Shown piece after piece: positions 16,638 through 45,822 of a stretch of DNA of 64,000 nucleotides. Location: the NCBI GenBank assembly GCA_050948905.1, contig JBMNES010000001.1, positions 821,448 to 885,447 on the forward strand, given 5' to 3'. The stretch is from Armatimonadota bacterium (GTDB lineage: Bacteria > Armatimonadota > UBA5829). The position numbers and the translations under genes are program-made. A model generated the notes under the pieces. The model saw only the letters and a list, made by a program, of their open reading frames with translations, was not told where the DNA came from and ran no database searches. The first letter of the stretch is position 1; each line of letters starts with the position of its first letter.

Positions 16638-17897
16638 CTACTTCGCCACTACGTTCAACCCCTCTTGCACATCCCCAGTCGATTCATTGGTGATCTGTTT
16701 TTCACCTTTGAACCTGTTGCCGGATATGACAGCAGTGGTGACGTCCTTGCCAAGGTGGATGTCCTTGCGCTCCATCCAGAACCGGCAGTTGGAGATGTTT
16801 ATGTCCCCCGAAAGTGCATCGATCGTGTAAAGGTCAGGGTGTCCGCCCTGGTTCAGGAATGTGCACTGGCTGAAGCTGACGGTGCCTTTGCCGTCGATTT
16901 TGGCTATCTGAGACGCAGGGCCCCAGAATGAGCAGTTGCCTAACTGCACGACACCGTTATGTGTGGCCGAGACCTCCATAAAGATATCGGTTTTGTTGTT
17001 ACCGACGAACTCGCCATTTGTGATAAGCAGTCCGGGTGGCTGGCAGTGGTCGACCAGTATCGCCCTGCCGCACCAGTCGGCTCCGATTCCGAGGAAGTTG
17101 CCATTGACCGAGCCGTCCGCATCTGCGGTAAAGTGATAACCCGTCTTCGCTCCGAATACGAACGTATTATGGACATACTCCCAGTCGGTGCGCTTGAACT
17201 GGAACGCGATTAAATTCTCTCCTATGTAGTTGATAAGATCGTCCCACTTCGGTATGCCTTCGGAACCTGCTCTGCCCCAGTAGTGCGGGTTGAAGTGGAC
17301 GTTTTCGATGCGGCCGATGTCGGTGCATTTGTCGATATGCACCCCGATTTTCAGCGGGCAGCCGAAGCAGTTGCGAATATAGTGTAATTCGTTTTTATAC
17401 TGACCGAAGTCGATGGCTTTGTAGGGGTTTACAAAGGTGCAGTCGATGACGCTGCCGTGCATTCCCTGGCCCTGGATAGTCCACGGATAGGCCAATGTAC
17501 CCGGAATGCGCTGTTCGGGATAGAAGAAAGTGATGCCCTTAACCGCGCTTGATGGGTTCAGCATAATGCACGGAGGGCCGTTTTCGTCTCCCTTGTCTGC
17601 GTAGACGAGAAATACCGTGCCATTGGATAGCTGTGCGTGATGCGGCGCCTCCCAGACTCCGGCGAGGGTGACGCCCTCCGGCACGTTGAGCGGCTTATCT
17701 ATCCGGTATTTGCCCGCTTCGAGTTGCACCACTCCACCGTGATTGGCCCCTGCGTAGTCGAGGGCTTTCTGGATAGCGACGGAATCGTCGGCGACTCCGT
17801 CAGCTTTGGCTCCGTAATCCTTCACGTTGACTGCAGCGCTGGCGCTAATCGCAAATAGCGCGCAGGCGGCTGCGGTTATAATTGTGGTAAAGTTCAT
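16638..17897 (-). CDS. Secreted right-handed beta-helix protein, pectate lyase superfamily (Pectate_lyase_3 / GH28-55-like)
   Basis: GGAGG RBS; signal peptide MNFTTIITAAACALFAISASA; N-terminal VKDYGAKADGVADDSVAIQKALDYA motif typical of this family. Confidence 0.7.
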   Translation of the reverse strand: MNFTTIITAAACALFAISASAAVNVKDYGAKADGVADDSVAIQKALDYAGANHGGVVQLEAGKYRIDKPLNVPEGVTLAGVWEAPHHAQLSNGTVFLVYADKGDENGPPCIMLNPSSAVKGITFFYPEQRIPGTLAYPWTIQGQGMHGSVIDCTFVNPYKAIDFGQYKNELHYIRNCFGCPLKIGVHIDKCTDIGRIENVHFNPHYWGRAGSEGIPKWDDLINYIGENLIAFQFKRTDWEYVHNTFVFGAKTGYHFTADADGSVNGNFLGIGADWCGRAILVDHCQPPGLLITNGEFVGNNKTDIFMEVSATHNGVVQLGNCSFWGPASQIAKIDGKGTVSFSQCTFLNQGGHPDLYTIDALSGDINISNCRFWMERKDIHLGKDVTTAVISGNRFKGEKQITNESTGDVQEGLNVVAK

Positions 17898-18020
17898 AGC
17901 CTGTCCTCCAAGTAAACTCAGCAACAGTATAAGTGAGATAGCACCGGCTGGCAATAGGCCGGGCAGGGAACTCGCGGGTGGGTAGAACGTAATTAATGCA
18001 AAGACCGAACAGGTGATTAA

Positions 18021-18959
18021 ATGGATAAGCCAAACGAGGTTCGCATTTACGATGCGCAGACTGGAGAAGTGAAGACCTTGCCGAAGGTTGTTAAGACTGA
18101 GACGGAGTGGAAAGAGATACTGACTCCTGAGCAGTTTAGAATCACCCGGCTAAGAGGCACTGAGCCGCCGGGCTCCGGCAAATGCGATGTTCCCTCTCGG
18201 CAGCAGCTCGGTATATATCAATGCGTCTGCTGCGGCACGGATTTGTTTAAACACGAGCACAAATACGAGTCCGGCAGCGGCTGGCCGAGCTTCTGGGAGC
18301 CGGTGTCTGATCTGAACCTGATTTTAGAGGTGGATGAATCTTTTGGGATGTATCGCACCGAGGTTATGTGCGCCCGCTGCGATGCTCACCTTGGTCACGT
18401 TTTCGACGACGGCCCTCCGCCCACGGGCAAGCGTTATTGCATAAACGCTGCCTCGTTGCGTCTATCGCAGGACGAGGCTGTTAATCGCGAAACAGCGATC
18501 TTTGCGGCGGGTTGTTTTTGGGGAGTAGAGTCGGCGTTCAGAGAGTTGATCGGCAAAGGGGTCATCTCAACCAGGGTCGGCTATACCGGCGGCCACACCG
18601 ATCATCCCACATATCAGTCCGTCTGCGCCGGTGGGACAGCTCACGCTGAGGCGGTTGAGGTGGTCTTTGATCCCAATAAGATAACCTACCAGCAGCTTTT
18701 GGATCTGTTCTGGAGCATTCACGACCCAACTACTCTCAACAGGCAGGGGTTGGATATAGGGGATCAGTACCGCTCAGCAATATTTTATACCTCGGCTGAG
18801 CAGAAAGAGGCAGCCGAAAAATCTAAGGAACAGCTTGCACAATCTGGAAAATTGCCCAGGCAGATTGTGACTGAGATAACCGAGGCGACGGAGTTCTGGG
18901 AGGCCGAGGAATATCATCAGCAATATAAAGATAAACGGGGCTATGGGGGCGCCAGATAA
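18021..18959 (+). CDS. msrAB: Bifunctional peptide-methionine sulfoxide reductase, MsrB-MsrA fusion
   Basis: MsrB CxxC..CxxC zinc motifs with GWPSF; MsrA GCFWG motif in the C-terminal half. Confidence 0.85.
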
Positions 18960-18961
18960 CG

Positions 18962-19175
18962 GGGAAGGGAAAACGCGAAAGAGCGAAAGGAGCGAAAGTT
19001 AGAAATTTAGATATGCTTTCGTATTTTGGGTGACCTAAGAAGGCTTGATCGGACTTCGAACATCAGACCTCGGACCTCGAAAAAAGCAGATTTCTCGCTT
19101 CGCTCGAAATGACAGGGGGTGGGCACTGGTTATGAGGCGGCGATTCGGAGATCGCCGCCTATCTTATTTAACATA
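18962..19175. repeat. REP/MITE-like repeat cluster (site 3): ~130-nt unit ~80% identical to 11850-11990, plus the GGCGGCGATTCGGAGATCGCCGCC palindrome
   Basis: Direct comparison with site 1. Confidence 0.8.
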
Positions 19176-19194
19176 ACCGACAACACAATACTGG

Positions 19195-20181
19195 TTATCC
19201 TCTTCGTCTCAAAACAGCCGAGCCTGCAAGCGCTATCAGCGAGCATAATCCGGCTATTGATGACGGCTCGGGTACCTGTTCCAGCTTAACAATGTAGTTG
19301 TAATTGTTCGCATAGCCATCGGTATAGTAATTGACTCCTGCGTAGATGCCACCTGTCTCGGCGTCTATGCGCAGGAAGGTGATCGCGGGGGATTCAACAT
19401 CCTCGCGGCTCAAAGTGGCCAGGGTCTCAATCGAAACTCCGTCCCAGCGCTGCAGCTTAGCCTGGCCGCCGGAGTTATCGCTGAACAGCAGCCTTCCCAG
19501 ACTATCAAATGCCAAACCTGCTGCTCCGTTGACCGCGATAGCTGCATCAGCGTCAGCGATTCCCAGCACATCGCCTTCAATCGCGCCCTGAACTTTGGCT
19601 GAACTCCACATATAAATATTCGTCGCAAATGGGTAGTTGCTCGGGCAATAATATAGATTTCCAGCAGCATCAAGCGCGACAGGACCAGAGTAACCCGCTG
19701 CGGTTGCCACCGGCGTTGTGTTATTGCTGGCATCCAGAGCATAGACCGTGTTGCCAGCGACTACAAATGCATTGTTGCCGTAGAAGTCGATGTCGTAGTT
19801 CCAGTCGAGTCGAGTTACGTCGTTGACGACGGCGGTAACAGGGTCGAATGTGCGGACCATACTGCTGGTATAATCGTTGTCTGCGAAATAGACCAGCCCA
19901 TTGTTATATTTCACAAACGATCCGAAGACCGAGGCCGAATAAGTGTAAAGAGTCTGCACATCGGCGCCGGATTGGGTGATCTCGCGCACGCTGTGGCCGT
20001 CATTTATCACGTAATTTCCATTGGGAAGCACATCAAAGCCACCCAAAAATGCCCCAGCAGGCAGAGAGAGAAACAGGTCGGTGCAGTTATAGGTGGCAGA
20101 GTCCAGCAACCCCGCTCCCCAACTCGCCGTCGCAGATAGAATAATTGCTGCGATGATAATCAGTTTCGTAGTTTTTTTCAT
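19195..20181 (-). CDS. PEP-CTERM sorting-domain protein with repeated beta-propeller-like blades (GNLYY / GRLLFSD / GLVYFAD)
   Basis: C-terminal VPEPSSIAGLCSLIALAGSAVLRRRG; N-terminal signal peptide. Confidence 0.8.
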   Translation of the reverse strand: MKKTTKLIIIAAIILSATASWGAGLLDSATYNCTDLFLSLPAGAFLGGFDVLPNGNYVINDGHSVREITQSGADVQTLYTYSASVFGSFVKYNNGLVYFADNDYTSSMVRTFDPVTAVVNDVTRLDWNYDIDFYGNNAFVVAGNTVYALDASNNTTPVATAAGYSGPVALDAAGNLYYCPSNYPFATNIYMWSSAKVQGAIEGDVLGIADADAAIAVNGAAGLAFDSLGRLLFSDNSGGQAKLQRWDGVSIETLATLSREDVESPAITFLRIDAETGGIYAGVNYYTDGYANNYNYIVKLEQVPEPSSIAGLCSLIALAGSAVLRRRG

Positions 20182-20203
20182 TTCTTGTCCTCCTTAATTG
20201 AAC

Positions 20204-21664
20204 TTAGTTTGTTTTGATGTCGTTTTGAGGGTCAATCACCCTGACGACAACTGAACCGTCGTCATCGCGGTCGCATATCACGGTAGCCGATAGATATGGC
20301 GCGCCGCTTACCGAATATGGGCCGCTCCAAACCAGTTTTGCGCTTGCAGAACCGTCGTTGATCTCGCAATAGCCGGGGCCTTTGGAGCATACCCTGCCCC
20401 AAACCCGCACCCTCATTCCGTAGGCGAGGTCGCTGGACAGGGTTTTGAGGTTCATTCCGACAGGCTCAATTTGCGCAGCGCCCGGTTCGGTGCAGGTCCA
20501 CATCGGGTCCGGAAATGTGAATCTGCCGGATGTTTTGGAGAGGTGACCAGTGATGGTCATTTTGTCGCCGACTGCCACTATTTTGCTGTCGACTGCGATG
20601 CTGGTGTCGTAGATGACTTTCATAGCGGCCGATCTGTTCGGGGCTTCGATGAAAAACGAATCCGGCAGGACAGCGGTTACGATAGCCTCTGTAATCAAAG
20701 CATATTCGCCATCTGGCAGTTTCTTTACTTCGCCGATGGAAAGCGCGGGACGACACGCCGCCACTGCGTCGATTTCGGCTGATATTTCGCCTAATCCGGG
20801 GAAATAGTCGCCGCTGACCGCATCCGTCAGCCGCACATATTTGAACCAGCTTATATTTGCCTTGATCTCGTTGCCATAGGAATCAATAGCCGGGACGCCG
20901 GGTGCACTTTGCAGCACTGCGTCGGCTATATCGAACGCGTCACCTCCTCCGGAAACATAGTCGAAACGTTCTGTATTGAACCCGCTGGGCACGCTCGGGC
21001 GATCAGGCACGGTATATAGCTCCTCCGCGCTGCGTGTCACCCAACTGAACGGGTTTTTGCTGCCGGCAGTCGGCAGTTCGATGGTGGGCGTGCAATCTGC
21101 ATAGCCGTAAAGTTTTGTTGACGAAAACCCGGTATCCGAGGACGGCACATAGGGGTTGGAGCCGGGCGCAGGGATTAGATCATTGGGCAGGATATTCGGC
21201 CGAATCAGATACCACTGCTCTCCGTCCTGGCTGATCTCGACAAAGGCCGGCTCCTGCCATCTGAAGTTCGGGTCAGCATATAGCGGCAGGTTTTCCGTCA
21301 TACTCAGCCGAAAATACGCATTACCGAATACTATGAAATCCAGACCGTATGGGTTTCGAGGGTCGTCTATAACAGGTGTCGAGAAACCGACCGCCACCGA
21401 AGCCGTCGTGCCTGCAGCGTTACGGTCGCCGAGTGAGACGCAGTAGCCATTATCATAGCTGTGCGCAGGCTCGTAAACCTGCCCGCCAGTCGGGGCGCCC
21501 AGGCATCTGAACGGGTCGTTATACAGAGGGTTGTTCACAAACTGCCCAGTGCCCGGAATATACCAGCTCTGCTGAGTTATATCCGCAAACCAGGCTTTGG
21601 CATTCACGGAAGCCGCAGTTGCAAAAGTCAAACATAAGATTATCGCAAGAGTAATTCGTTTCAT
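20204..21664 (-). CDS. Secreted hypothetical protein (~487 aa from MKRITL), no recognisable family
   Basis: Signal peptide MKRITLAIILCLTFATAASVNA; GAGG RBS; the ORF-track 5' extension runs into a repeat element and is probably not coding. Confidence 0.6.
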   Translation of the reverse strand: MKRITLAIILCLTFATAASVNAKAWFADITQQSWYIPGTGQFVNNPLYNDPFRCLGAPTGGQVYEPAHSYDNGYCVSLGDRNAAGTTASVAVGFSTPVIDDPRNPYGLDFIVFGNAYFRLSMTENLPLYADPNFRWQEPAFVEISQDGEQWYLIRPNILPNDLIPAPGSNPYVPSSDTGFSSTKLYGYADCTPTIELPTAGSKNPFSWVTRSAEELYTVPDRPSVPSGFNTERFDYVSGGGDAFDIADAVLQSAPGVPAIDSYGNEIKANISWFKYVRLTDAVSGDYFPGLGEISAEIDAVAACRPALSIGEVKKLPDGEYALITEAIVTAVLPDSFFIEAPNRSAAMKVIYDTSIAVDSKIVAVGDKMTITGHLSKTSGRFTFPDPMWTCTEPGAAQIEPVGMNLKTLSSDLAYGMRVRVWGRVCSKGPGYCEINDGSASAKLVWSGPYSVSGAPYLSATVICDRDDDGSVVVRVIDPQNDIKTN

Positions 21665-21667
21665 TTT

Positions 21668-21808
21668 CCAAACCTCAATATAGCTTCGCACCTCGAACTT
21701 CCGACCTCGAAAAAGCAGACTTCTCACTTCGTTCGAAGTGACATAGTTGTTGACTACGTTCACAATCGTAATTTCGAGATGGCGATCTCCGAATCGCCAC
21801 CCCAAAGC
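21668..21808. repeat. REP/MITE-like repeat (site 4) lying inside the riboswitch-controlled operon, between the DUF1559 gene and the secreted-protein gene
   Basis: TCACTTCG-TT-CGAAGTGA hairpin; GGTGGCGATTCGGAGATCGCCATC palindrome (minus-strand sense, includes G-U wobble). Confidence 0.75.
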
Positions 21809-21810
21809 CC

Positions 21811-22653
21811 CTATTTATTATCAAAAAGCGAGTTATCATCCCCGCCAAAATAGCCAATATTGTGCTTCTCATTGTTGCCGCCATAGAAGAAGTTCGGTGG
21901 CCTGGTGAAACTCATCTTTTCCGCGCTTACATGTCCATCACACCAGCCGACATTGGCCACCCCGTTGTGCCTGAAATGAATGCTCGGAGTGGTGGGGTAG
22001 GCTGTCCCATCCGGGGTTACGTGATACGGCGGTTCGGCGAATGAGTACTGCATCGGCCCGCCGTCGCTGGTAATCGCAGCGTCGGTGAACATTACCGTGC
22101 GGGCGGGATATGCGATGTCTCCCGTGCGAGAGGCTATTTTGTTAGATTCAGGCGGATAATTGCGATACGCCGTCCCGCCGACATAAGCCTGGTTATATCC
22201 AAACCCGCCGCAACCCGCCTCGAACGTGCCCTTTAATTGAACCGCGGTCGGGCAGATTTTCAAGCCACCGGATCTGCCGAAATACACCCACAGAGGGCCT
22301 TTATTCGCCTCGAATTCCGCGCCGACACGCGGCCTTACCCCGTGCCACCGATGCAGATTCGGCCCGGTGATATCTGATGCGGCTGGGACATAGGTTCCGG
22401 AGTAGTCGTCGGAATAGGCCAGGTTTGCGGCGAGAAGCTGTTTGAGCTGTGCGGCGCAACGGGTTTTTCTGGCGGATTCTTTAGCCACTCCGAACACAGG
22501 AAATAATATGGCGGCCAGAATCGCGATGATGGCGATGACCACCAGCAGTTCGATGAGTGTGAATCCGCTGTACAAACAGAAACGGGCCTCTCGCCCATTT
22601 CGGATATTTTTCAGGACGGAAGCCCGGTTTATTCGGGGTGTTGCGTCCGACAT
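21811..22653 (-). CDS. Prepilin-type N-terminal cleavage/methylation domain protein of the DUF1559 / H-X9-DG family (type II pseudopilin-like)
   Basis: G^[24 protein letters not shown] class III signal; C-terminal [13 protein letters not shown] (H-X9-DG); GGAGG RBS. Confidence 0.85.
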
Positions 22654-22659
22654 CTTTGC

Positions 22660-22844
22660 CTCCGAAGATGCTGCGCTAATGATGCGAAAGGGCAGGTCTT
22701 CTGGCTTCCGGATCGCTCTAGCCGGCTACCTTCCCAGTCCTTTTAGACCAGTGGATAACGCCGGTTCGTCCCCGGTTACAGCGGCGGGCCCGCGACGGTT
22801 TTTCACCGTCTTCCCTTAACCCAAATCGCCAAATATTCAGTTGC
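22660..22844 (-). ncRNA. Cobalamin (AdoCbl) riboswitch in the 5' leader of the DUF1559-secreted protein-PEP-CTERM operon
   Basis: Minus-strand RNA carries the cobalamin riboswitch core elements: GGGAAG; GGUGAAAAACCGUC hairpin; GCGGGCCCGCCGCUGUAA; CCACUG..GGGAAGG; B12 box AGCCAGAAGACCUGCC. A CAUCUU[CGGAGGC]AAGAUG hairpin sequesters the SD and AUG. Confidence 0.85.
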
Positions 22845-22850
22845 TACAGG

Positions 22851-22879
22851 AGTATAACAAGGAAGCGGAGTCAAGTCAA
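22851..22879 (-). promoter_or_regulatory. Sigma70-like promoter for the riboswitch transcript (minus strand): TTGACT-N17-TATACT
   Basis: -35 at 22874-22879 and -10 at 22851-22856 on the minus strand with 17-nt spacer; riboswitch begins ~7 nt downstream. Confidence 0.6.
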
Positions 22880-22934
22880 TGGCATTTTGTCGATTCAACC
22901 GAGTCTATTTTACTGCTCAATTCGATGAATCGCG
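22879..22934. repeat. ~55-nt conserved element, copy A (ATGGCATTTTGTCGATTCAAcCGAGTcTAtTTTACTGCTCAATTCGAtGAATCGCG). It has two dyad-symmetric boxes, abuts the -35 of the riboswitch promoter and overlaps the last codons of the DUF3343 gene
   Basis: 52/56 identical to 25745-25800; it is read in different frames in the two copies, so it is conserved at the nucleotide level and does not encode a conserved peptide. Confidence 0.75.
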
Positions 22935-23137
22935 GCAGTCTCTACGCCCACAGTCTGCAACAACTGTGCTACTTCAGGCTCCCGGTTCCAATCGAAGCGC
23001 AGCGAAATGCCGCAGTCGCTGGAAAACTGGCGCGGCACTGGAACCAATGCGCAGTCGATTTCAGCCTCGTTTAAGACCTTTTCAGCGGCGAATGCGGCCG
23101 ATGTGGTATGAAACAGCACTACCCCAAAATTATCCAT
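22910..23137 (-). CDS. DUF3343 (putative Se/S carrier protein-like) small protein
   Basis: 75 aa; VVLFHTTSAAFAAEKVL..ALVPVPRQFSSDCGISLRF matches the DUF3343 pattern. Confidence 0.7.
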   Translation of the reverse strand: MDNFGVVLFHTTSAAFAAEKVLNEAEIDCALVPVPRQFSSDCGISLRFDWNREPEVAQLLQTVGVETAAIHRIEQ

Positions 23138-24281
23138 CAGCAGCTATCTCACTTACTGCGTCTATGGCACGAGTTACATCTTCTTCGGATGTAAAAGGCC
23201 CGACTCCGAACCTAACCACGCCTTCCGGAAACGTGCCGATGATTTTATGTGCGGCAGGGGCGCAGTGCAGGCCAACCCGACAGAGTATGCCATAATCGTC
23301 GTCGAGTCGTTGCCCCACCTCAGAGACATATTTGCCCTTTATCCGAAACGATACAAGCGGGACTCGATCGGAGGCCTCTACCGGCCCGAACACCTCGACT
23401 CCCGGTATGCTTATTAAACCATCAATTAGGTATTTTATGAGCCGGGTTTGGTGTTGATGCAGCGAATCGCACTCCGGAGAACATATCCATCGAATCGCCG
23501 CTCCCAGCCCCGCTATTCCGACTCCATTTGGCGTCCCGGCCTCAAGCCTGTCAGGTAAAACCTCAGGGTGTGTTTCCGATTGGGACCTGCTGCCTGTCCC
23601 GCCCTGCATAAATGTGCTGATCTCACTTTCCGCCCGGTCGGTGCATATAACCAGCCCACCTGTGCCGGGTGGGCCTTGCAGTGATTTGTGGCCGGTGAAG
23701 GCTATGAAATCAGCGTATAAATCTGCCGCCCTGATCGGCACTACCCCGGCTGTCTGCGCCGCATCCAATAGGGTCATCGCTCCTGCGCAGTGCGCCATTT
23801 GAAATATATCTGATACCGGCATAATGCGTCCTATGACATTGCTGGCGTGGGTCATAACAACAAGGCGGACGTCATGTGACAGGAGTTGCCGAAATGCGTC
23901 AAGGTCGATTTGACCAGACGGATCGCACGGCGCAACCAGCACGCGCACTCCACGAGCTTCAGCGGTACGCAGGGGTCGCATCACGGAGTTGTGCTCAACA
24001 GAAGTCGTCAACACCGTATCCCCAGGCTTAAGGGTTGTATGAATCACCATATTCAGCGCCTGGGTCGCGTTATTGGTGAAGATTACCCTGTCTGTTTTGG
24101 TCGCTCCGAAGAAGTTCGCCAGCCCCTCCCTGGCTTCGTGAACAACCCGCCCTGCCGCTATCGAGAGTCTGTGCCCGGAGCGGCCGGGGTTTGCTCCGGT
24201 TGTCTCAAGAAAGTCCTTCATCGCCTCTACGACGACAGGCGGTTTGGGCCAGGATGTGGCGGGATGATCCAGATATATCAT
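23130..24281 (-). CDS. Class V aminotransferase-fold PLP enzyme, cysteine desulfurase / selenocysteine lyase-like
   Basis: N-terminal IYLDHPATSWPKPP..; FTNNATQALN; PLP-lysine region AFTGHKSLQGPPGTGGL; 4-bp overlaps with both flanking genes. Confidence 0.75.
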   Translation of the reverse strand: MIYLDHPATSWPKPPVVVEAMKDFLETTGANPGRSGHRLSIAAGRVVHEAREGLANFFGATKTDRVIFTNNATQALNMVIHTTLKPGDTVLTTSVEHNSVMRPLRTAEARGVRVLVAPCDPSGQIDLDAFRQLLSHDVRLVVMTHASNVIGRIMPVSDIFQMAHCAGAMTLLDAAQTAGVVPIRAADLYADFIAFTGHKSLQGPPGTGGLVICTDRAESEISTFMQGGTGSRSQSETHPEVLPDRLEAGTPNGVGIAGLGAAIRWICSPECDSLHQHQTRLIKYLIDGLISIPGVEVFGPVEASDRVPLVSFRIKGKYVSEVGQRLDDDYGILCRVGLHCAPAAHKIIGTFPEGVVRFGVGPFTSEEDVTRAIDAVSEIAADG

Positions 24282-24499
24282 TTAACAAGTTCCAACCGGA
24301 ACTCACCGTTGTCCAGTTGAGTTTGTCGAACGTTCCAATTCTCCATTTCGGCCGCCCTCTTGACGTTGTCTCGCGTTGTATTCGAGTCCACTAGAACATG
24401 AACAATCGTAGCGTCTTTTTGTTGCATAGCCTGCTTTGCGTGCAAAACCGGTTCGGGACAGGATAACCCTCTCACGTCGATTTCAATAGCTTCGTTCAT
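24278..24499 (-). CDS. TusA-like sulfurtransferase (YedF/SirA family)
   Basis: 73 aa; CPxP active-site motif GLSCPEPV. Confidence 0.8.
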   Translation of the reverse strand: MNEAIEIDVRGLSCPEPVLHAKQAMQQKDATIVHVLVDSNTTRDNVKRAAEMENWNVRQTQLDNGEFRLELVK

Positions 24500-24502
24500 A
24501 TA

Positions 24503-25642
24503 TCAGCCCCCCACGCTCCTCTTTTCTTTCATATAAATTCCGGTGACAATGCAAAAAACCAGTCCGATGACCACGGCGACCAATCCGTACGGACCGGGGC
24601 CTTTGGCGCTGCTGGCAAGGCTGAAATTGTGCGCGAACGCTGCACCTGTCAGCATCCCCAGCACAAATACTCCTGCGTCACCGTCGCCTTCGCCGCTCAA
24701 AAACACCTGCCGACCCGGACAGCCTCCGGCAAGGGTAAATGCAAGCCCCGCGAGCAACATACCGGCGAAGTTCATAAACCAATCCGTGTGCGCTATCGGC
24801 TGATTAACAAAACCAGCCTTGAACTGGCCTAATGCGATATTAGTGATGAACGCGGCGATAATCAGCGCGATCACCCCGGAAAGCAGGTGCCCATCTCGCA
24901 TCAGTGCGTAGTCGCGTATCGCCCCGACTGTGCAGAATCGAGACCGCTGCGCCATAAAGCCTATGATAAGACCGATGGCAAGAGTAATCAGAATAGGCGC
25001 GTGCATACTGCCAGGCCCTTCGGTCGAGAAAAATACCGGCCCTGTCGGCTGCCCGGCGGCATCACGACCTGCCAATGGAGCAAATATCAAAAGAACCAGC
25101 AGGCCGATTGCAAGCGCAGGCATTATATATCCCACAGGCCACGCAGCGCCTTTGTTTCTGCCAAGGCTGAAGCCGTTCTTCAGAAAGCTGATTCCGATCA
25201 AGACCCCAACCACCAGTCCGGCAATGCCCGGAATAGAGTTCAAATCGCCACCAGCCAGCCTCAGAAAAGCTCTCCACGGGCACCCCAGAAATACTAAAGC
25301 GCCGATCATCGCAAATGCCCCTAATAGGAAACGCATAATAGGAGAGGAACCGCTGCGCGACTTGAACTCGCGAAACATCAATGCCGCAACAAACGCGCCG
25401 AGCACAAAACCGATGATCTCCGGTCGAATATACTGCACGACACCCGCCCGATGCAGACCCAACGCCCCGGCTATGTCTCTGGTAAAGCAGGCAACGCAAA
25501 TGCCCATATTCCCCGGGTTTCCAAGACGTACTAGGATAGGCGCGAGTATTCCTACGCATATCCCTGTAACGGCCGGGCCATATTTAGAGGTGAGAAGATT
25601 CTTAACAGAAGATATGGCAACAGATCCTTTCTTGCCGGACAA
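24503..25642 (-). CDS. YeeE/YedE family inner-membrane transporter (thiosulfate/selenium uptake family). Start uncertain: the ORF-track ATG at 25864 runs through the conserved repeat and looks non-coding there, so a TTG near 25640 is proposed
   Basis: Multiple TM helices; paired Cys-containing motifs (GICVACFTRD, RSRFCTVGAIRD, LAGGCPGRQV) typical of YeeE/YedE. Confidence 0.7.
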   Translation of the reverse strand: MSGKKGSVAISSVKNLLTSKYGPAVTGICVGILAPILVRLGNPGNMGICVACFTRDIAGALGLHRAGVVQYIRPEIIGFVLGAFVAALMFREFKSRSGSSPIMRFLLGAFAMIGALVFLGCPWRAFLRLAGGDLNSIPGIAGLVVGVLIGISFLKNGFSLGRNKGAAWPVGYIMPALAIGLLVLLIFAPLAGRDAAGQPTGPVFFSTEGPGSMHAPILITLAIGLIIGFMAQRSRFCTVGAIRDYALMRDGHLLSGVIALIIAAFITNIALGQFKAGFVNQPIAHTDWFMNFAGMLLAGLAFTLAGGCPGRQVFLSGEGDGDAGVFVLGMLTGAAFAHNFSLASSAKGPGPYGLVAVVIGLVFCIVTGIYMKEKRSVGG

Positions 25643-25744
25643 GAGGTGGCATGTTCTTAACTGGTCATCAGGTGAAATTGTAACGATGCTGCACGCTTTG
25701 GTCAAGAAATCCTGCCGCTGTTGTATATATCCCTCTGCTATAAC

Positions 25745-25800
25745 ATGGCATTTTGTCGATTCAATCGAGTGTAATTTACTGCTCAATTCGACGAATCGCG
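25745..25800. repeat. ~55-nt conserved element, copy B, in the divergent region between yeeE and hrcA
   Basis: ATGGCATTTTGTCGATTCAATCGAGTGTAATTTACTGCTCAATTCGACGAATCGCG, with dyads TCGATTcAATCGA and ATTCGaCGAAT. Confidence 0.75.
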
Positions 25801-25917
25801 AGAGAAAGGCACTAAACAAGCCAAAATCGATGGATAATCCTGAAGCAGCGAGTCTCCTTGACATTGAAGCGGGTGGGTGTTAATATCCAAATGTGTCTTA
25901 TGATTCGGAGCATTGGG

Positions 25918-27028: not shown

Positions 27029-28438
27029 ATGAAAACCCTTTTTCTCAATCCACCATCATTTGAAGGCTTTGACGGCGGCGCTGGGGCGCGGTATCAGGCG
27101 CGACGGGAGATCAAATCTTTCTGGTATCCGGATTGGCTGGCTCAAGCGGCGGCGCTGGTCGAAGGCAGCAGGCTGGTCGACGCGCCTCCGGATGATCTGA
27201 CCGTTCATGACGTGGTCGAGATCGCTGCGGACTACGATTTGGCTATTTTATATACCTCTACCCCATCTTTTGCAGGGGATGCGAAAATTGCTGAATCGAT
27301 AAAAGAGGCCAACGACTCAATTAAAATCGGCTTTGTTGGGCCGCATGTCACGGTGTTGCCGGAGGAATCTCTTCAAAACGCCCCGGCGGTGGATTTTGTT
27401 GTGCGAAGGGAGTTCGACTACGCCGTCCGGGACATCGCTGCGGGCAGGAAGCTCTCCGAAGTCGATGGGGTGAGCTACAGGGAGGGAGGCTCGGTACGGC
27501 ATAATCGACTTCCCGATCTGATAACCGATCTCGACGCACTGCCGAGTGTGCTGGATGTATACAAGCGAGATCTGACCATTGAGAATTATTATAACGGCTA
27601 TTTACTTCACCCATATCTCTCCCTTTACACCGGCCGCGGATGCACTCATTATTGCTCCTTTTGCCTTTGGCCGCAGACCGTATCAAGCCGGAAGTTCCGG
27701 ACACGCAGCCCCGAATCCGTGTATCGAGAGTTCGCACAGGCAAAGGAGTATTTTCCGCAGGTCAAGGAGTTTTTCGTGAACGACGATACATTCACCGCAA
27801 ACCGCCCCAGAGCCGAGGAGATCGCCCGTAAGTTCAAGCCGTTGTCAATAACCTGGGCCGCGAATGCCGCAGCCGACGTGCCTTATGAGACGCTTAAAGT
27901 GCTGAAGGATTGCGGGTTGCGGATTCTGGTGGTGGGCTATGAGTCCGGCTCAGATGTGATTTTGCGCAATATTCGCAAGGGCGTGACCACAGATATGGCC
28001 CGCAGGTTCACCGATGATTGCAAGAAGCTCGGCATAGATGTTCACGGCTGTTTTATATTGGGCCTGCCGGGGGAGACACAGGAAACTATCGAAGAGACGA
28101 TCCGCTACGCCTGCGAGATCGACCCTGACATGCTGCAAGTATCGGTGGCGGCGCCGTATCCCGGCACGGAGTTTTATAAACAGGCCGTAGACAACAATTG
28201 GCTTTCCCCGACGGACCTACTCAACTCTGAGGGGATTCAGGAGTGTGTGTTGAATTATCCGGGCCTGTCTCCCGCCGACATTACAACAAGTGTAGGCCGA
28301 TTCTACCGTCGCTTTTACACGCGTCCTCGGGTTTTGTATCGCATAGGGCGCAAGATGATGCGCGACCCGCACGAACGGCAGCGCCGTCTTCGCGAAGGCA
28401 AAGAATTTTGGCAGTATCTGCGGACGCGAGACGATTGA
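27029..28438 (+). CDS. hpnJ: B12-binding radical SAM protein, hopanoid biosynthesis-associated HpnJ-like
   Basis: N-terminal MKTLFLNPPSFEGFDGGAGARYQARREIKSFWYP resembles HpnJ; CxxxCxxC radical SAM motif (GCTHYCSFC); ~470 aa. Confidence 0.7.
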   Translation: MKTLFLNPPSFEGFDGGAGARYQARREIKSFWYPDWLAQAAALVEGSRLVDAPPDDLTVHDVVEIAADYDLAILYTSTPSFAGDAKIAESIKEANDSIKIGFVGPHVTVLPEESLQNAPAVDFVVRREFDYAVRDIAAGRKLSEVDGVSYREGGSVRHNRLPDLITDLDALPSVLDVYKRDLTIENYYNGYLLHPYLSLYTGRGCTHYCSFCLWPQTVSSRKFRTRSPESVYREFAQAKEYFPQVKEFFVNDDTFTANRPRAEEIARKFKPLSITWAANAAADVPYETLKVLKDCGLRILVVGYESGSDVILRNIRKGVTTDMARRFTDDCKKLGIDVHGCFILGLPGETQETIEETIRYACEIDPDMLQVSVAAPYPGTEFYKQAVDNNWLSPTDLLNSEGIQECVLNYPGLSPADITTSVGRFYRRFYTRPRVLYRIGRKMMRDPHERQRRLREGKEFWQYLRTRDD

Positions 28439-28447
28439 TTTGCACAA

Positions 28448-28801
28448 CTAGGGCGCAGATGGCGCGGCGTACTTCACCAGATCTCCCTCGACCGGCTTTT
28501 CAGCGCCCTCCGCAACATCGAACGTGATCTCGGCGGTCTTGTCCTCAATCTTGGTAATACTTCCAGTGGCGATCAACTCCGTGAGAACCTTCAGCACCTC
28601 CCCGGTGTCCGGGTCTTTCAGCACCCTGCCCTTTTTATGAAGCTCGACCTTATCGCCCGGTAAATACCCTTTTGATGTCCCGATATTCGCGATGATAACC
28701 GGGCCTTCTACATTAAGCACGACTCCGTCGGGGCGCGCCATCGGACGATTTTTGGGTGTGAGCACCAGTTTTTTCGCGTCAAGTGCAGCGCAGAAATTCA
28801 A
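28448..28801 (-). CDS. Hypothetical protein, translationally coupled (ATGA overlap) downstream of the CsgG-like gene
   Basis: ORF only; no family recognised. Confidence 0.4.
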   Translation of the reverse strand: MNFCAALDAKKLVLTPKNRPMARPDGVVLNVEGPVIIANIGTSKGYLPGDKVELHKKGRVLKDPDTGEVLKVLTELIATGSITKIEDKTAEITFDVAEGAEKPVEGDLVKYAAPSAP

Positions 28802-29475
28802 AGCCAGTCATCGATGGCTTTCTTTGTTGCGACGCCGAGGATGGTGTTCATAAAGTCTGTGCTGCCGAACTCGATGCCTCCCAGCCCACTGCGACCGAGT
28901 GCGGCTATCTGGAACTTGCCGCGTGAATCCTCTCCTCTGCCGTTATAGCTGCCCAAAATCTCCGCAGTCTCTGCGTCAACAACCCGGATATCCACCTCAA
29001 CATTCGCTTTGGTGTTTGAGGACCTGACGCCCGCAAGCCCGCCGATTACTCCGCCAATCCCGCCTGTATTGCGGGTTGTCCAGGCGAACTGCGTGACTTT
29101 GCCCATAAGAAGATAATCGACTCCGACCACCTTTCCGATTTTAACTGCTGTACGGGCGTCGACCCGCGAAGATGCGCCGAGGTCCTGCTCGGCTATGGCT
29201 TTATCCAGCAGGTTGCGCTCCATCAGCCTGAATCTGTTCTTTTCAAGCATCGTGGTGGTCAATATATCGGCCAGCCCGGTGCCGACGTCCCAGTTTGTGC
29301 CCCACCAGGCTTCTCTCTTTATAGCGCCGTCGTCCAAAGCCACGATCGCAATCGAGGGTCGCTCGGCCATAGGCACATATTGTTCCTGTGGTTGTGGTGT
29401 CGCCTCCGCAGAGTATAGCGGCACAGCCAGCACCACGAACAGGCCTATCATAATCGTCATACTTATTCGTCTCAT
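28798..29475 (-). CDS. CsgG-family (curli-type secretion channel-like) protein with a signal peptide and no lipobox
   Basis: ADILTTTMLEKNRFRLMERNLLDKAIAEQDL resembles the CsgG core; signal peptide MTIMIGLFVVLAVPLYSAEA. Confidence 0.55.
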   Translation of the reverse strand: MRRISMTIMIGLFVVLAVPLYSAEATPQPQEQYVPMAERPSIAIVALDDGAIKREAWWGTNWDVGTGLADILTTTMLEKNRFRLMERNLLDKAIAEQDLGASSRVDARTAVKIGKVVGVDYLLMGKVTQFAWTTRNTGGIGGVIGGLAGVRSSNTKANVEVDIRVVDAETAEILGSYNGRGEDSRGKFQIAALGRSGLGGIEFGSTDFMNTILGVATKKAIDDWL

Positions 29476-43789: not shown

Positions 43790-44743
43790 ATGGCAAGTTC
43801 CACAGAGACCAAGCCCGCAAACGGGCACATATCCGACCAGACTCCGAACCTGGAGCTTCATCTTAGCAGGGATGTTTTCGTCACCGGGAAGCGTCTCAGC
43901 GGCGTGGTGGTGCTTCGGCTTGGTCAGAGCGTCAATATGCGGTCGCTGGTCGTCTCCTTTGACGGATCGGAGCGACCGAGGGGGGTCTCGTTGGCTCGTG
44001 CTTTCCGGAAGGCTCATTCTTTTTTTAACAGAGAGAAACTACTGACTGGAGCGTTGGAGCCTCGGCTGGCTTCTGAGCGACTATCTCTGTTATGGAATGC
44101 GCTGCTTGGAAGGTACACCGGGCGGACGTTGAGCGCCGGTGAGCATACATACCCATTTTCGATTCCCCTGCCCGCCTCGCTGCCACCGAGCTACGACGGT
44201 AAAGCGGGCAAAATTCGATATCGCGTGACGGCCAAATTCCAACCGGCAATCGGCAGAGCGATCAAGGTCTCGAAGGTCGTAGATGTACTCTTTGTGCCAC
44301 GACTGCACCGGGAGAGACCTATGGCGCTGGGGTATCCGGAGGCGGATGGGACTGTGCAGCCTACCGACATCAAGGCGAGTATCGAACTCGTCGAGCGGAT
44401 GGTCGGTATGGGAGAGGCTGTGCAGGGCAGTTTTTCGATATCTAACCCCAAAAGCGCGGATATTCCACGAGTGACGGTGTCTTTGGAGGTCTGCGAGTGG
44501 GTGAGGCTGGCTGTTGATAAGGAAATCCAGCGCGACAGGGTCGATATGGCGGTTATCGTGCCGGAAAACCCGTCTGCCACGTCCATCGAAGCCCCATTTA
44601 AGCTCCGATTGCCTAAAACCGCGCCGCCGACCATCGAAGGAAGCTCGATATCCGTCATCTGGTTGCTAAAACTGACCCTGGACACCGACCCAACCATCGA
44701 AGTTAAGACGCCGATCACGGTATACATCGGAAACAAGCAATGA
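43790..44743 (+). CDS. Arrestin-fold (alpha-arrestin-like N+C domain) protein
   Basis: LELHLSRDVFVTGKRLSGVVVL N-domain start; GEHTYPFSIPLPASLPPSYDGKAGKIRYRVTAKF matches the eukaryotic alpha-arrestin G.H.FPF.LP..LP.S..G..G.I.Y motif; C-domain beta-sandwich-like ending VIWLLKLTLDTDPTIEVKTPITVY. Confidence 0.6.
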   Translation: MASSTETKPANGHISDQTPNLELHLSRDVFVTGKRLSGVVVLRLGQSVNMRSLVVSFDGSERPRGVSLARAFRKAHSFFNREKLLTGALEPRLASERLSLLWNALLGRYTGRTLSAGEHTYPFSIPLPASLPPSYDGKAGKIRYRVTAKFQPAIGRAIKVSKVVDVLFVPRLHRERPMALGYPEADGTVQPTDIKASIELVERMVGMGEAVQGSFSISNPKSADIPRVTVSLEVCEWVRLAVDKEIQRDRVDMAVIVPENPSATSIEAPFKLRLPKTAPPTIEGSSISVIWLLKLTLDTDPTIEVKTPITVYIGNKQ

Positions 44744-45822
44744 ACGGAAGAGAGCGCGTCATTGCCGCTATGGAGCACAGACCGGTGGATCGTATCCCGG
44801 TCTTTCCCGTGGTCACAAACTACATCGGCGCGAGGGTTCTTGGTCGTAAAATGATCGATATGGACCTCGACCCGATGCTGAAATTTGAGTCCACAGCCGC
44901 TATTATCAAGCGCTTCGGCTTTGATGGGATCGAGGTTGGAATAGGCCCGGAGCGCGGATGGGAGACGCACCGGCAGGTGGTGGAGGTCGACGGGGAGAAG
45001 TGTCTTGCTTACTCCGACGGAACCCCTTACGCCAGACTTCAGGAAAACGATCAGGCGATACGAATTGCCTCCGATCCACCGCTGAAAAACAAGCGCGATC
45101 TGGATAATATCCCCGTCACGGCTGCCGAGTCTTACGAAGAACGCGGTTGTCTGGAGCCGTTGAGAGAACTGGTGAGGCGTATTGGCGATGATGTGTTTTT
45201 GGCGGGAGTGGCGGCTGGGCAGACGATGAATTCGCTGGTGGCGTGGCGAGGGTCGGACCAGGGGATGCTGGATTTAGTCGATGACCCCGGATTTGTGCTG
45301 GCTGTTATGGAAAAGGCGACCGATATTTCTATAGAGATCGGCAAAGCAGCTATCTCTGCAGGGGTCCACGGGATGTATATCGGGGACGCCTGGGCATCGG
45401 CGAGCATAATTTCCCCTCACCATTACGAAAAATTCTGCCAGCCGTTTCACGCAAAAGCCGCCGATGCGTTTCACCAGTTGGGAGCCAAAGTCTACCTGCA
45501 CATATGCGGTAATTCGTCGCCTATACTTGAGATGATGGCCGACACAGGGGTGGATGCGATTGAGCCGCTTGATCAGATGGATATCGACGGGCTTGCGGAT
45601 GCGAAAAGGCGCGTGGGGGACAGGGTCTGTCTGAAAGGCGGGATAAGCACGTCGTCTCTGCTGAATGGCTCAAGTGAAGAAGTCTACAGGTTATGTGCGG
45701 AGGCCATCGAACGCTGCGGCCCGACTGGGTATATACTCGGCAGCGGCGACGACATCCCGAGAGATGCTCCGTTTGAGAATATAGACGCTATGCGCAGGGC
45801 GAGTGAAGAGGCTGGGTATTAG
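44740..45822 (+). CDS. Uroporphyrinogen decarboxylase (URO-D) family protein, MtaA/CmuA-like methyltransferase-type, translationally coupled (ATGA) to the arrestin-like gene
   Basis: RERVIAAMEHRPVDRIPV N-terminus and overall URO-D TIM-barrel family pattern. Confidence 0.65.
   Translation: MNGRERVIAAMEHRPVDRIPVFPVVTNYIGARVLGRKMIDMDLDPMLKFESTAAIIKRFGFDGIEVGIGPERGWETHRQVVEVDGEKCLAYSDGTPYARLQENDQAIRIASDPPLKNKRDLDNIPVTAAESYEERGCLEPLRELVRRIGDDVFLAGVAAGQTMNSLVAWRGSDQGMLDLVDDPGFVLAVMEKATDISIEIGKAAISAGVHGMYIGDAWASASIISPHHYEKFCQPFHAKAADAFHQLGAKVYLHICGNSSPILEMMADTGVDAIEPLDQMDIDGLADAKRRVGDRVCLKGGISTSSLLNGSSEEVYRLCAEAIERCGPTGYILGSGDDIPRDAPFENIDAMRRASEEAGY

Follow-up and report, generated by a model that had tools for sequence, protein, structure and literature searches.

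Vitamin B12 is a keystone shared micronutrient, and its acquisition outside Proteobacteria and Bacteroidota is poorly known. Cobalamin riboswitches control B12 synthesis, uptake or B12-independent isozymes; a typical genome has only a handful of them, and those that act on translation follow an established design, a kissing loop between L5 and L13. Bacteroides thetaiotaomicron has surface lipoproteins that bind B12; BtuG, a seven-bladed propeller, forms the B12-capturing lid of BtuB. The C-terminal H-domain of BtuG1 is homologous to BtuH2, which gives BtuG1 two B12 sites (PMC10404256). In the crystal structure of BtuH2 with B12, Gln333 and Asn399 touch the ribose and phosphate, and His476, Tyr510, Trp511 and Trp577 hydrogen-bond the corrin amides (PMC8941943). 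Within the BtuH family only the part of the pocket near the phosphate is well conserved, the corrin-contact surface being poorly conserved (Putnam et al., PMC8941943). Gut Bacteroidota and three Firmicutes are the reported sources of BtuH homologs, and over 80% of these homologs share an operon with btuB (PMC8941943; PMC13616437). Here we analyse a three-gene operon (genes A, B and C) behind a cobalamin riboswitch in a 64-kb stretch, the window, of an Armatimonadota genome (assembly GCA_050948905.1, contig JBMNES010000001.1, positions 821,448 to 885,447). Sequence comparison makes it quite probable that this operon is a B12-repressed corrinoid-capture module at the cell envelope, built on a BtuH-type binder and a dedicated pseudopilin.

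A cobalamin riboswitch ahead of three genes for exported proteins

The riboswitch and the genes behind it are laid out as follows.

22674..22839, minus strand: cobalamin riboswitch aptamer (RF00174), a full-model covariance match; orthologous aptamers lie in the same position at related loci
21811..22653, minus strand: gene A, prepilin-type pseudopilin of 280 amino acids (aa), with N_methyl, borderline DUF1559 and TIGR04294 matches
20204..21664, minus strand: gene B (whole gene), 486 aa, with a signal peptide and no Pfam match
20750..21664, minus strand: N-terminal part of gene B (aa 1-305), a Sec signal peptide and a BtuH-like (H-domain) putative corrinoid-binding domain
20204..20749, minus strand: C-terminal part of gene B, two OB-fold-like domains (aa ~310-486) and the stop codon
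19195..20181, minus strand: gene C, 328 aa, with a signal peptide, a six-bladed beta-propeller and a PEP-CTERM anchor

RF00174 is the single Rfam family above its gathering score in the entire window (cmscan). The match, at 22839-22674 (-), scores 97.5 bits against a gathering score of 31.5 (E 4.4e-23) and covers model positions 1-189/189. The riboswitch is a genuine RF00174 member and lies upstream of the operon on the same strand. An earlier reading of these letters, made from the sequence alone (the sequence-only reading), had placed a cobalamin riboswitch at 22660-22844 (-) and had called for a covariance search with RF00174; its bounds were essentially right. It had also held that the switch controls three exported proteins and not btuB/btuF, cob or metE genes. 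Genes A, B and C, all on the minus strand downstream of the leader, do encode exported proteins, and we found no btuB, btuF or btuCD in either the cassette or the regions around it (the 64-kb window for the source genome, 5-kb flanks for related loci); the cassette itself has no transporter gene of any other kind.

Gene B carries a BtuH-type domain

About 300 relatives of gene B are detectable. When the PDB was searched with the single gene B sequence, nothing was returned at E <= 1, and the likeness to BtuH emerged from profiles and a fold search only. An AlphaFold2 model built from a 67-sequence alignment reached a predicted local distance difference test score (pLDDT) of 92.3 and a predicted template modelling score (pTM) of 0.89, and the fold search found that its N-terminal domain shares the fold of BtuH2 and of the BtuG1 H-domain. 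Compared with the PDB, the gene B family profile matched 8blw_B at E 2.1e-14 and 7biz at E 7.3e-8; a two-phylum profile of the domain reached E 6.1e-35 and 6e-27 to the same chains, with both ends of the H-domain covered. Gene B is a BtuH-domain protein by both fold and sequence.

The contacts to the nucleotide loop are also conserved. BtuH2 Gln333 aligns to a PGQF motif of the gene B family (Q41, nearly invariant), and Asn399 to a GNAF motif (N115, invariant in A1 and at least 90% in A4). These comparisons strongly suggest that gene B binds corrinoids. A DxNxNGxxDDxWY loop that is common to BtuH2, the BtuG1 H-domain and the Planctomycetota homologs would, judging by its motif, bind calcium; at the position of this loop the gene B of the window (aa ~143-152) reads ISQDGEQWY. 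The region C-terminal of the domain is variable, with two OB-like domains in Armatimonadota and dockerin/EF-hand modules in Planctomycetota.

The sequence-only reading had described a 487-aa protein without known family, because the BtuH-like domain has no Pfam model, and this description does not hold. The same reading had taken the propeller of gene C as the point of likeness to surface B12 binders, while seeing no homology to BtuG. The lack of homology stands; the real link to the Bacteroides B12 lipoproteins is gene B, not the propeller. Two other assignments were rejected. A match of gene B to the LIC_13355 lipoprotein (NCBIfam) is sub-threshold, at 30.6 bits against a cut-off of 120, and covers residues 229-284 only, and no cassette protein has a Pfam or InterPro match to DUF4465 that would make it kin to BtuJ.

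The cassette recurs behind the same riboswitch

An alignment of the gene B family was scanned over one genome per GTDB species, which gave 80 loci. Thirteen of these are from Armatimonadota or Abditibacteriota and hold full-length gene B relatives; the rest, mostly from Phycisphaerae and other Planctomycetota, match over the N-terminal 300 residues only. A riboswitch lies upstream of the gene B homolog on the same strand at 72/80 loci (nhmmer aptamer profile with Rfam checks). The core of the sequence-only reading, a candidate corrinoid-capture operon of exported proteins under a cobalamin riboswitch, has more support than the letters alone could give. By batch, 11/13, 14/14 and 1/4 loci were Rfam-positive. 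Among the Armatimonadota and Abditibacteriota, Rfam detects RF00174 at 11/13; at the other two the contig breaks off ~1 kb upstream of the gene. Five of the eight riboswitch-negative loci of the whole set are contigs ending too soon, and the other three are L015, L021 and L026. Because a genome has so few cobalamin riboswitches, chance cannot account for this linkage.

The Armatimonadota order is riboswitch-A-B-C, and identities drop to 44% (A), 31% (B) and 24% (C). In Planctomycetota it is riboswitch-C'-B'-A', where A' is 35-44% identical to gene A and C' is a distant but significant hidden Markov model match to gene C. Between genes A and B the window has 146 nt (21665-21810) and its close relative L001 has 176 nt; at most other loci the two genes abut or overlap. 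Single-frame fusions join B to C in L007 (L007:4935-7187), and C' to B' in L015, L021, L026, L029, L031 and L050. The riboswitch and genes A, B and C form a self-contained unit, since the genes that flank the cassette are unrelated or on the opposite strand.

An independent set was chosen by gene A: four relatives (L081-L084) of 42-47% identity on long contigs, taken regardless of their neighbours. L081 is a Hydrogenedentes metagenome-assembled genome (MAG; GCA_050950105.1), L082 is a Chthoniobacter (Verrucomicrobiota), and L083 and L084 are further contigs. RF00174 lies upstream on the same strand in 4/4, and three of the four (L082, L083 and L084) hold a propeller/PEP-CTERM gene together with an H-domain gene. 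The H-domains of L083 and L084 are very divergent and were recognised by profile-profile comparison only (probability ~96%). In L081 (L081:4649-5885) the riboswitch has a single gene behind it, for a cassette-type pilin; the gene after that runs the other way, and neither a BtuH-like nor a propeller gene lies alongside. Predicted cassettes under the same switch are present in at least five bacterial phyla, including Armatimonadota, Abditibacteriota, Planctomycetota, Verrucomicrobiota and Hydrogenedentes. Four loci of the Planctomycetota type (L028, L033, L047 and L058) are in MAGs labelled Vicinamibacteraceae (Acidobacteriota) or Bacteriovoracaceae; MAG taxon labels can be wrong, and misbinning or horizontal transfer of the cassette could explain these.

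Gene A belongs to a distinct pseudopilin subfamily

DUF1559 is among the largest uncharacterised protein families of the Planctomycetes-Verrucomicrobia-Chlamydiae (PVC) superphylum, and we know of no function for the wider DUF1559 / H-X9-DG family. Gene A has a prepilin motif (PF07963, 30.1 bits with a cut-off of 21.2; TIGR02532, 29.9 bits with a cut-off of 16.3), with a 30-aa leader, a cleavage site G|FTLIELL and the motifs RWHG, GGFGYN and QYSF. Its C-terminal H-X9-DG element (TIGR04294) scores 24.2 bits against a cut-off of 19, and HFRH...DGH is conserved in the alignment. The match to DUF1559 (PF07596) is borderline, at 23.4 bits with a cut-off of 23.3, and covers profile positions 3-32/268 only; 23/39 gene A orthologs match DUF1559 at E <= 0.01. 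The description of gene A as an H-X9-DG, DUF1559 and type II pseudopilin-like protein, made before any database search, is therefore borne out by N_methyl and TIGR04294, with DUF1559 at the borderline only. Against the GspG equivalog model gene A scores 32.8 bits, below the cut-off of 88.85 and over the N-terminal helix only, and in the PDB a generic pilin N-terminal helix was its sole match.

An alignment of orthologs from the two phyla shows 36-76% identity and many invariant positions; its conserved motifs are RWHG.R, a Cys pair, FE.G.GGYGYN, EYSF.EP, PS.HFRH...DGH and GWFG..DN. RW[HFY]G, GGYGYN and EYSF are present in 54-56/56 cassette pilins and in 0/11 other prepilin-type open reading frames of the same loci; on this ground we take gene A to define a distinct orthologous subfamily of predicted DUF1559 / H-X9-DG pseudopilins. 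No second prepilin gene is present in the 64-kb window. Of all members of the B12 regulon the pilin is the most constant: it is found in every cassette and, in L081, alone behind the riboswitch. Because of this stand-alone locus, the comparison argues that gene A would have a B12-related role of its own.

Gene C encodes a predicted six-bladed propeller

The PEP-CTERM anchor of gene C matches TIGR02595 at 22.1 bits with a cut-off of 16 (residues 303-327). The structure model (pLDDT 86.7) has 24 strands, which make six four-stranded blades, in line with the beta-propeller-like blades that had been read from the sequence. Membership of the BtuG family is not supported: gene C is six-bladed and no homolog of BtuG2, whose propeller is seven-bladed. 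It resembles lactonase/NHL propellers.

Hairpins in the leader suggest translational control

The remaining elements of the leader are:

22851..22879, minus strand: sigma-70-like promoter TTGACT-17-TATACT with an extended -10 TG, 10/12 consensus positions, a consensus match only
22651..22670, minus strand: P13/L13-like expression-platform hairpin CAUCUU/AAGAUG of 20 nt with loop CGGAGGCA, between the aptamer and the start of gene A
22574..22626, minus strand: terminator-like hairpin with a stem of ~13 bp and then a U-run, within the codons of the gene A prepilin leader peptide

The near-consensus promoter that the sequence-only reading had set ahead of the leader is present at 22879-22851 (-), in a region where 6 promoter-like sites were found and 3.2 are expected. 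The hairpin it had proposed for the Shine-Dalgarno (SD) sequence and start codon is likewise present (~22670-22651): the SD GGAGG is within the loop, and the AUG of gene A within the 3' arm AAGAUG. When the whole leader was folded by minimum free energy, it scored z = -0.41 relative to shuffled sequences, which was uninformative on the riboswitch. When the window was compared with 11 Armatimonadota loci, this hairpin was either invariant or changed by one wobble-compatible A-to-G, in diverged flanking sequence, and the L5 region of the aptamer, CGGGCCCGCC, was invariant as well. An L5-L13 kissing-loop interaction is thus predicted for the leader of the window, and the conserved SD/AUG hairpin suggests that control is in the OFF direction.

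The terminator-like hairpin lies ~30-80 nt inside the gene A reading frame, with its stem at ~22626-22583. Over eight loci (the window and its equivalents in L003, L004, L006, L007, L009, L012 and L013), 100% of the cells of the 8-bp lower stem are paired, compared with 34-56% in slid-partner controls, and compensatory changes are seen at two pairs. It is seen only where gene A comes directly after the riboswitch, and the prepilin leader peptides that carry it are unusually long (27-31 aa). It was not found where the leader peptide is short, in L005 (Abditibacteriota) and in Planctomycetota, whose cassettes start with a gene other than A. We rejected the view that the hairpin at 22601-22579 is a chance terminator match in a coding region, as it is part of the longer conserved, covarying stem. 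Our hypothesis, which is the simplest reading, is that the in-frame hairpin may be a translation-coupled attenuator layered on the riboswitch.

A probable B12-repressed capture module and its rivals

How would such a module work? When corrinoid is plentiful, the RF00174 aptamer would fold and lock the SD/AUG hairpin, probably through the L5-L13 kissing loop, so that translation of gene A would be blocked; in Armatimonadota, transcription would then probably terminate for want of a ribosome to melt the in-frame hairpin. When corrinoid is scarce, the operon would be expressed and the three exported proteins made. Gene B would be secreted and capture corrinoid in its BtuH-type pocket, and gene C, anchored by PEP-CTERM/exosortase sorting, would be its partner at the surface. 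Gene A would be processed by prepilin peptidase and tie the system to a type IV filament or a type II secretion-like apparatus encoded elsewhere; it could act as (i) an uptake pseudopilus for the binder or the vitamin, (ii) a display or export adaptor for B and C, or (iii) a membrane-anchored periplasmic corrinoid receptor. We infer all the roles given to A and C, as well as that of the in-frame terminator.

Several observations weigh against a capture module of this design. At the pocket, BtuH2 Trp577 aligns to Gly in gene B, the segment of His476, Tyr510 and Trp511 has no confident alignment, and the DxNxNGxxDDxWY loop is missing from the Armatimonadota proteins, in which the metal dependence of the pocket may differ. 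The signal peptide of gene B has no lipobox Cys; with neither a lipobox nor btuB, btuF or btuCD, the cassette alone offers no evident route for corrinoid to the cytoplasm. Gene C is a generic propeller without specific link to BtuG. The fused C'-B' loci L015, L021 and L026 have no detectable riboswitch and are the sole negatives on untruncated loci. Lastly, the internal terminator is supported by eight sequences only, which are mutually related.

The alternatives differ mainly in what they ask of the pilin. In the first, gene A is a cargo-specific minor pseudopilin that exports B and C through a type II secretion-like machine, and B12 enters by a conventional BtuB/ABC route encoded elsewhere. 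The prepilin leader and weak N-terminal similarity of gene A to GspG, GspH and other pseudopilins fit this picture, as do the Sec signal peptides and surface-anchoring modules (PEP-CTERM, dockerin) of B and C and the want of a transporter gene in the cassette. The L081 riboswitch, which controls a pilin with no B or C gene beside it, speaks against it, and the literature searched held no precedent for a vitamin-regulated secretion adaptor. We consider this export role possible, if on balance unlikely.

Rather less likely still is that the pilin itself is the corrinoid-binding element, BtuF-like and either anchored in the inner membrane or placed in a pseudopilus, with B and C as accessory surface scavengers gained and lost around it. 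No similarity of gene A to any known B12 binder was found, its PDB matches being confined to the pilin N-terminal helix. That it is the constant element of the cassette, alone in L081, would nonetheless suit a receptor, and so would its conservation between phyla (36-45% identity), in which many aromatic and histidine residues are invariant, and its subfamily-specific motifs. About equally doubtful is a TonB/BtuB-independent uptake of B12, in which a DUF1559-type pseudopilin in a retractile type IV filament or pseudopilus would take corrinoid from the BtuH-propeller complex, or bind it directly, and pull it through the outer envelope.

It is very improbable that the operon has nothing to do with acquisition and is B12-regulated for adhesion to B12-producing partners, for surface remodelling under B12 limitation or for a corrinoid-unrelated role with a repurposed BtuH-like domain: the unconserved corrin-contact residues of gene B, the lactonase/NHL likeness of gene C and the cassette's lack of a transporter would agree with this, against the conservation in the gene B family of the phosphate-side pocket, the very part conserved within the BtuH family, against the known targets of cobalamin riboswitches and against the G/H-type fusions, which parallel the Bacteroides capture proteins.

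Surroundings of the operon

One more feature lies at the far end of the operon:

19135..19160, no strand assigned: GC-rich 11-bp palindromic hairpin between the convergent genes C and msrAB, a likely operon end

The minus-strand operon would terminate at this hairpin, which has a T-run on the plus strand only. The convergent neighbour encodes a fused MsrB-MsrA methionine sulfoxide reductase (18021-18959). Just upstream of the riboswitch promoter, at 23130-25864 (-), is a selenium-handling pair, made up of a putative selenium transporter of the YedE family (TIGR04112, 484 bits) and an SclA-like cysteine desulfurase / selenocysteine lyase. A CsgG-like curli-secretion lipoprotein homolog (28798-29475, minus strand) and a secreted pectate-lyase-like beta-helix protein (16638-17954, minus strand) are also near the operon, and genes for the envelope and for polysaccharides are plentiful in the window (MurJ, glycosyltransferases, LytR-CpsA-Psr and a rhamnosidase among them).

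The organism has use for corrinoids, since it encodes at least one B12-binding radical SAM enzyme (27029-28438) and a URO-D-family protein (44740-45822), both of which had been named beforehand as present in the window. The start of the URO-D-family gene overlaps by 4 nt a gene at 43790-44743 (+) for a protein with Arrestin_N, Arrestin_C and Rgp1 Pfam matches; an arrestin-like fold is unusual in bacteria.

What is new and why it matters

Full-text searches returned no relevant paper that links a cobalamin riboswitch to DUF1559, H-X9-DG or PEP-CTERM proteins, pilins or pseudopilins. The kind of binder domain and the kind of riboswitch are already known. What is new is the whole cassette and the range of phyla that carry it, along with several of its traits: a six-bladed partner for the binder, a pseudopilin dedicated to the system, the lack of any gene for a TonB-dependent transporter and the putative in-frame attenuator. 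The BtuH B12-binding domain is extended from gut Bacteroidota and three Firmicutes to environmental Armatimonadota, Planctomycetota, Verrucomicrobiota and Hydrogenedentes, where it is set in a different machine, beside a six-bladed propeller and a dedicated pseudopilin and in a cassette without a BtuB gene. For a DUF1559-type pilin, this is a first regulatory and genomic handle and a first functional lead. If uptake by a pilus were true, it would be the first vitamin-uptake pilus and the first function assigned to the very large DUF1559 / H-X9-DG family, and other DUF1559 paralogs would be suggested as substrate-specific uptake pilins.

Comparison with known systems

The closest known counterparts of gene B are BtuH and the H-domain of BtuG1 (PDB 7BIZ, 8BLW) of Bacteroides thetaiotaomicron. 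The gene B domain shares with them the fold, profile-level homology and the nucleotide-loop contacts Gln (PGQF) and Asn (GNAF), and the systems have in common control by a cobalamin riboswitch and pairing, at times fusion, with a beta-propeller protein. As in Bacteroides BtuH with its variable PKD stalks, a conserved binding domain sits on variable stalk or anchor modules. Unlike BtuH, gene B has no lipobox, and OB-like, dockerin and EF-hand modules or the PEP-CTERM partner appear to anchor it; its operon has no btuB/btuFCD, Trp577 is replaced and the other corrin contacts are not alignable. Its partner is a six-bladed propeller without kinship to BtuG, a gene for a dedicated pseudopilin is never missing, and the phyla differ, being here Armatimonadota, Planctomycetota, Verrucomicrobiota and Hydrogenedentes. 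With BtuG, gene C shares a surface-anchored propeller, an H-domain neighbour or fusion and a B12 riboswitch, a presumed parallel that is functional and architectural only.

The leader resembles the kissing-loop riboswitches (env8, E. coli btuB) in that the ribosome-binding site sits in a hairpin downstream of a full RF00174 aptamer, with L5 and L13 invariant across orthologs. In contrast to classical riboswitches, the Armatimonadota leaders have a second, covarying terminator-like hairpin inside the reading frame. This suggests attenuation coupled to translation, which is more like pyrBI-type control than like a standard riboswitch terminator.

Gene A is like the DUF1559 / H-X9-DG prepilin-like proteins (PF07596, TIGR04294; Planctomycetota, Verrucomicrobiota) in its leader, methylation motif, N-terminal hydrophobic helix, C-terminal H-X9-DG and phylogenetic range. 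It differs from the wider family as a subfamily with invariant motifs of its own, tied specifically to cobalamin riboswitches and matching the Pfam model at the borderline. With the pseudopili of competence DNA uptake and type II secretion it shares, by pure analogy, the idea of a pilin-like subunit that moves a ligand or cargo across the envelope. In contrast, its cassette lacks genes for an assembly ATPase, a platform or a secretin, and what is moved would be a vitamin or the protein that binds it.

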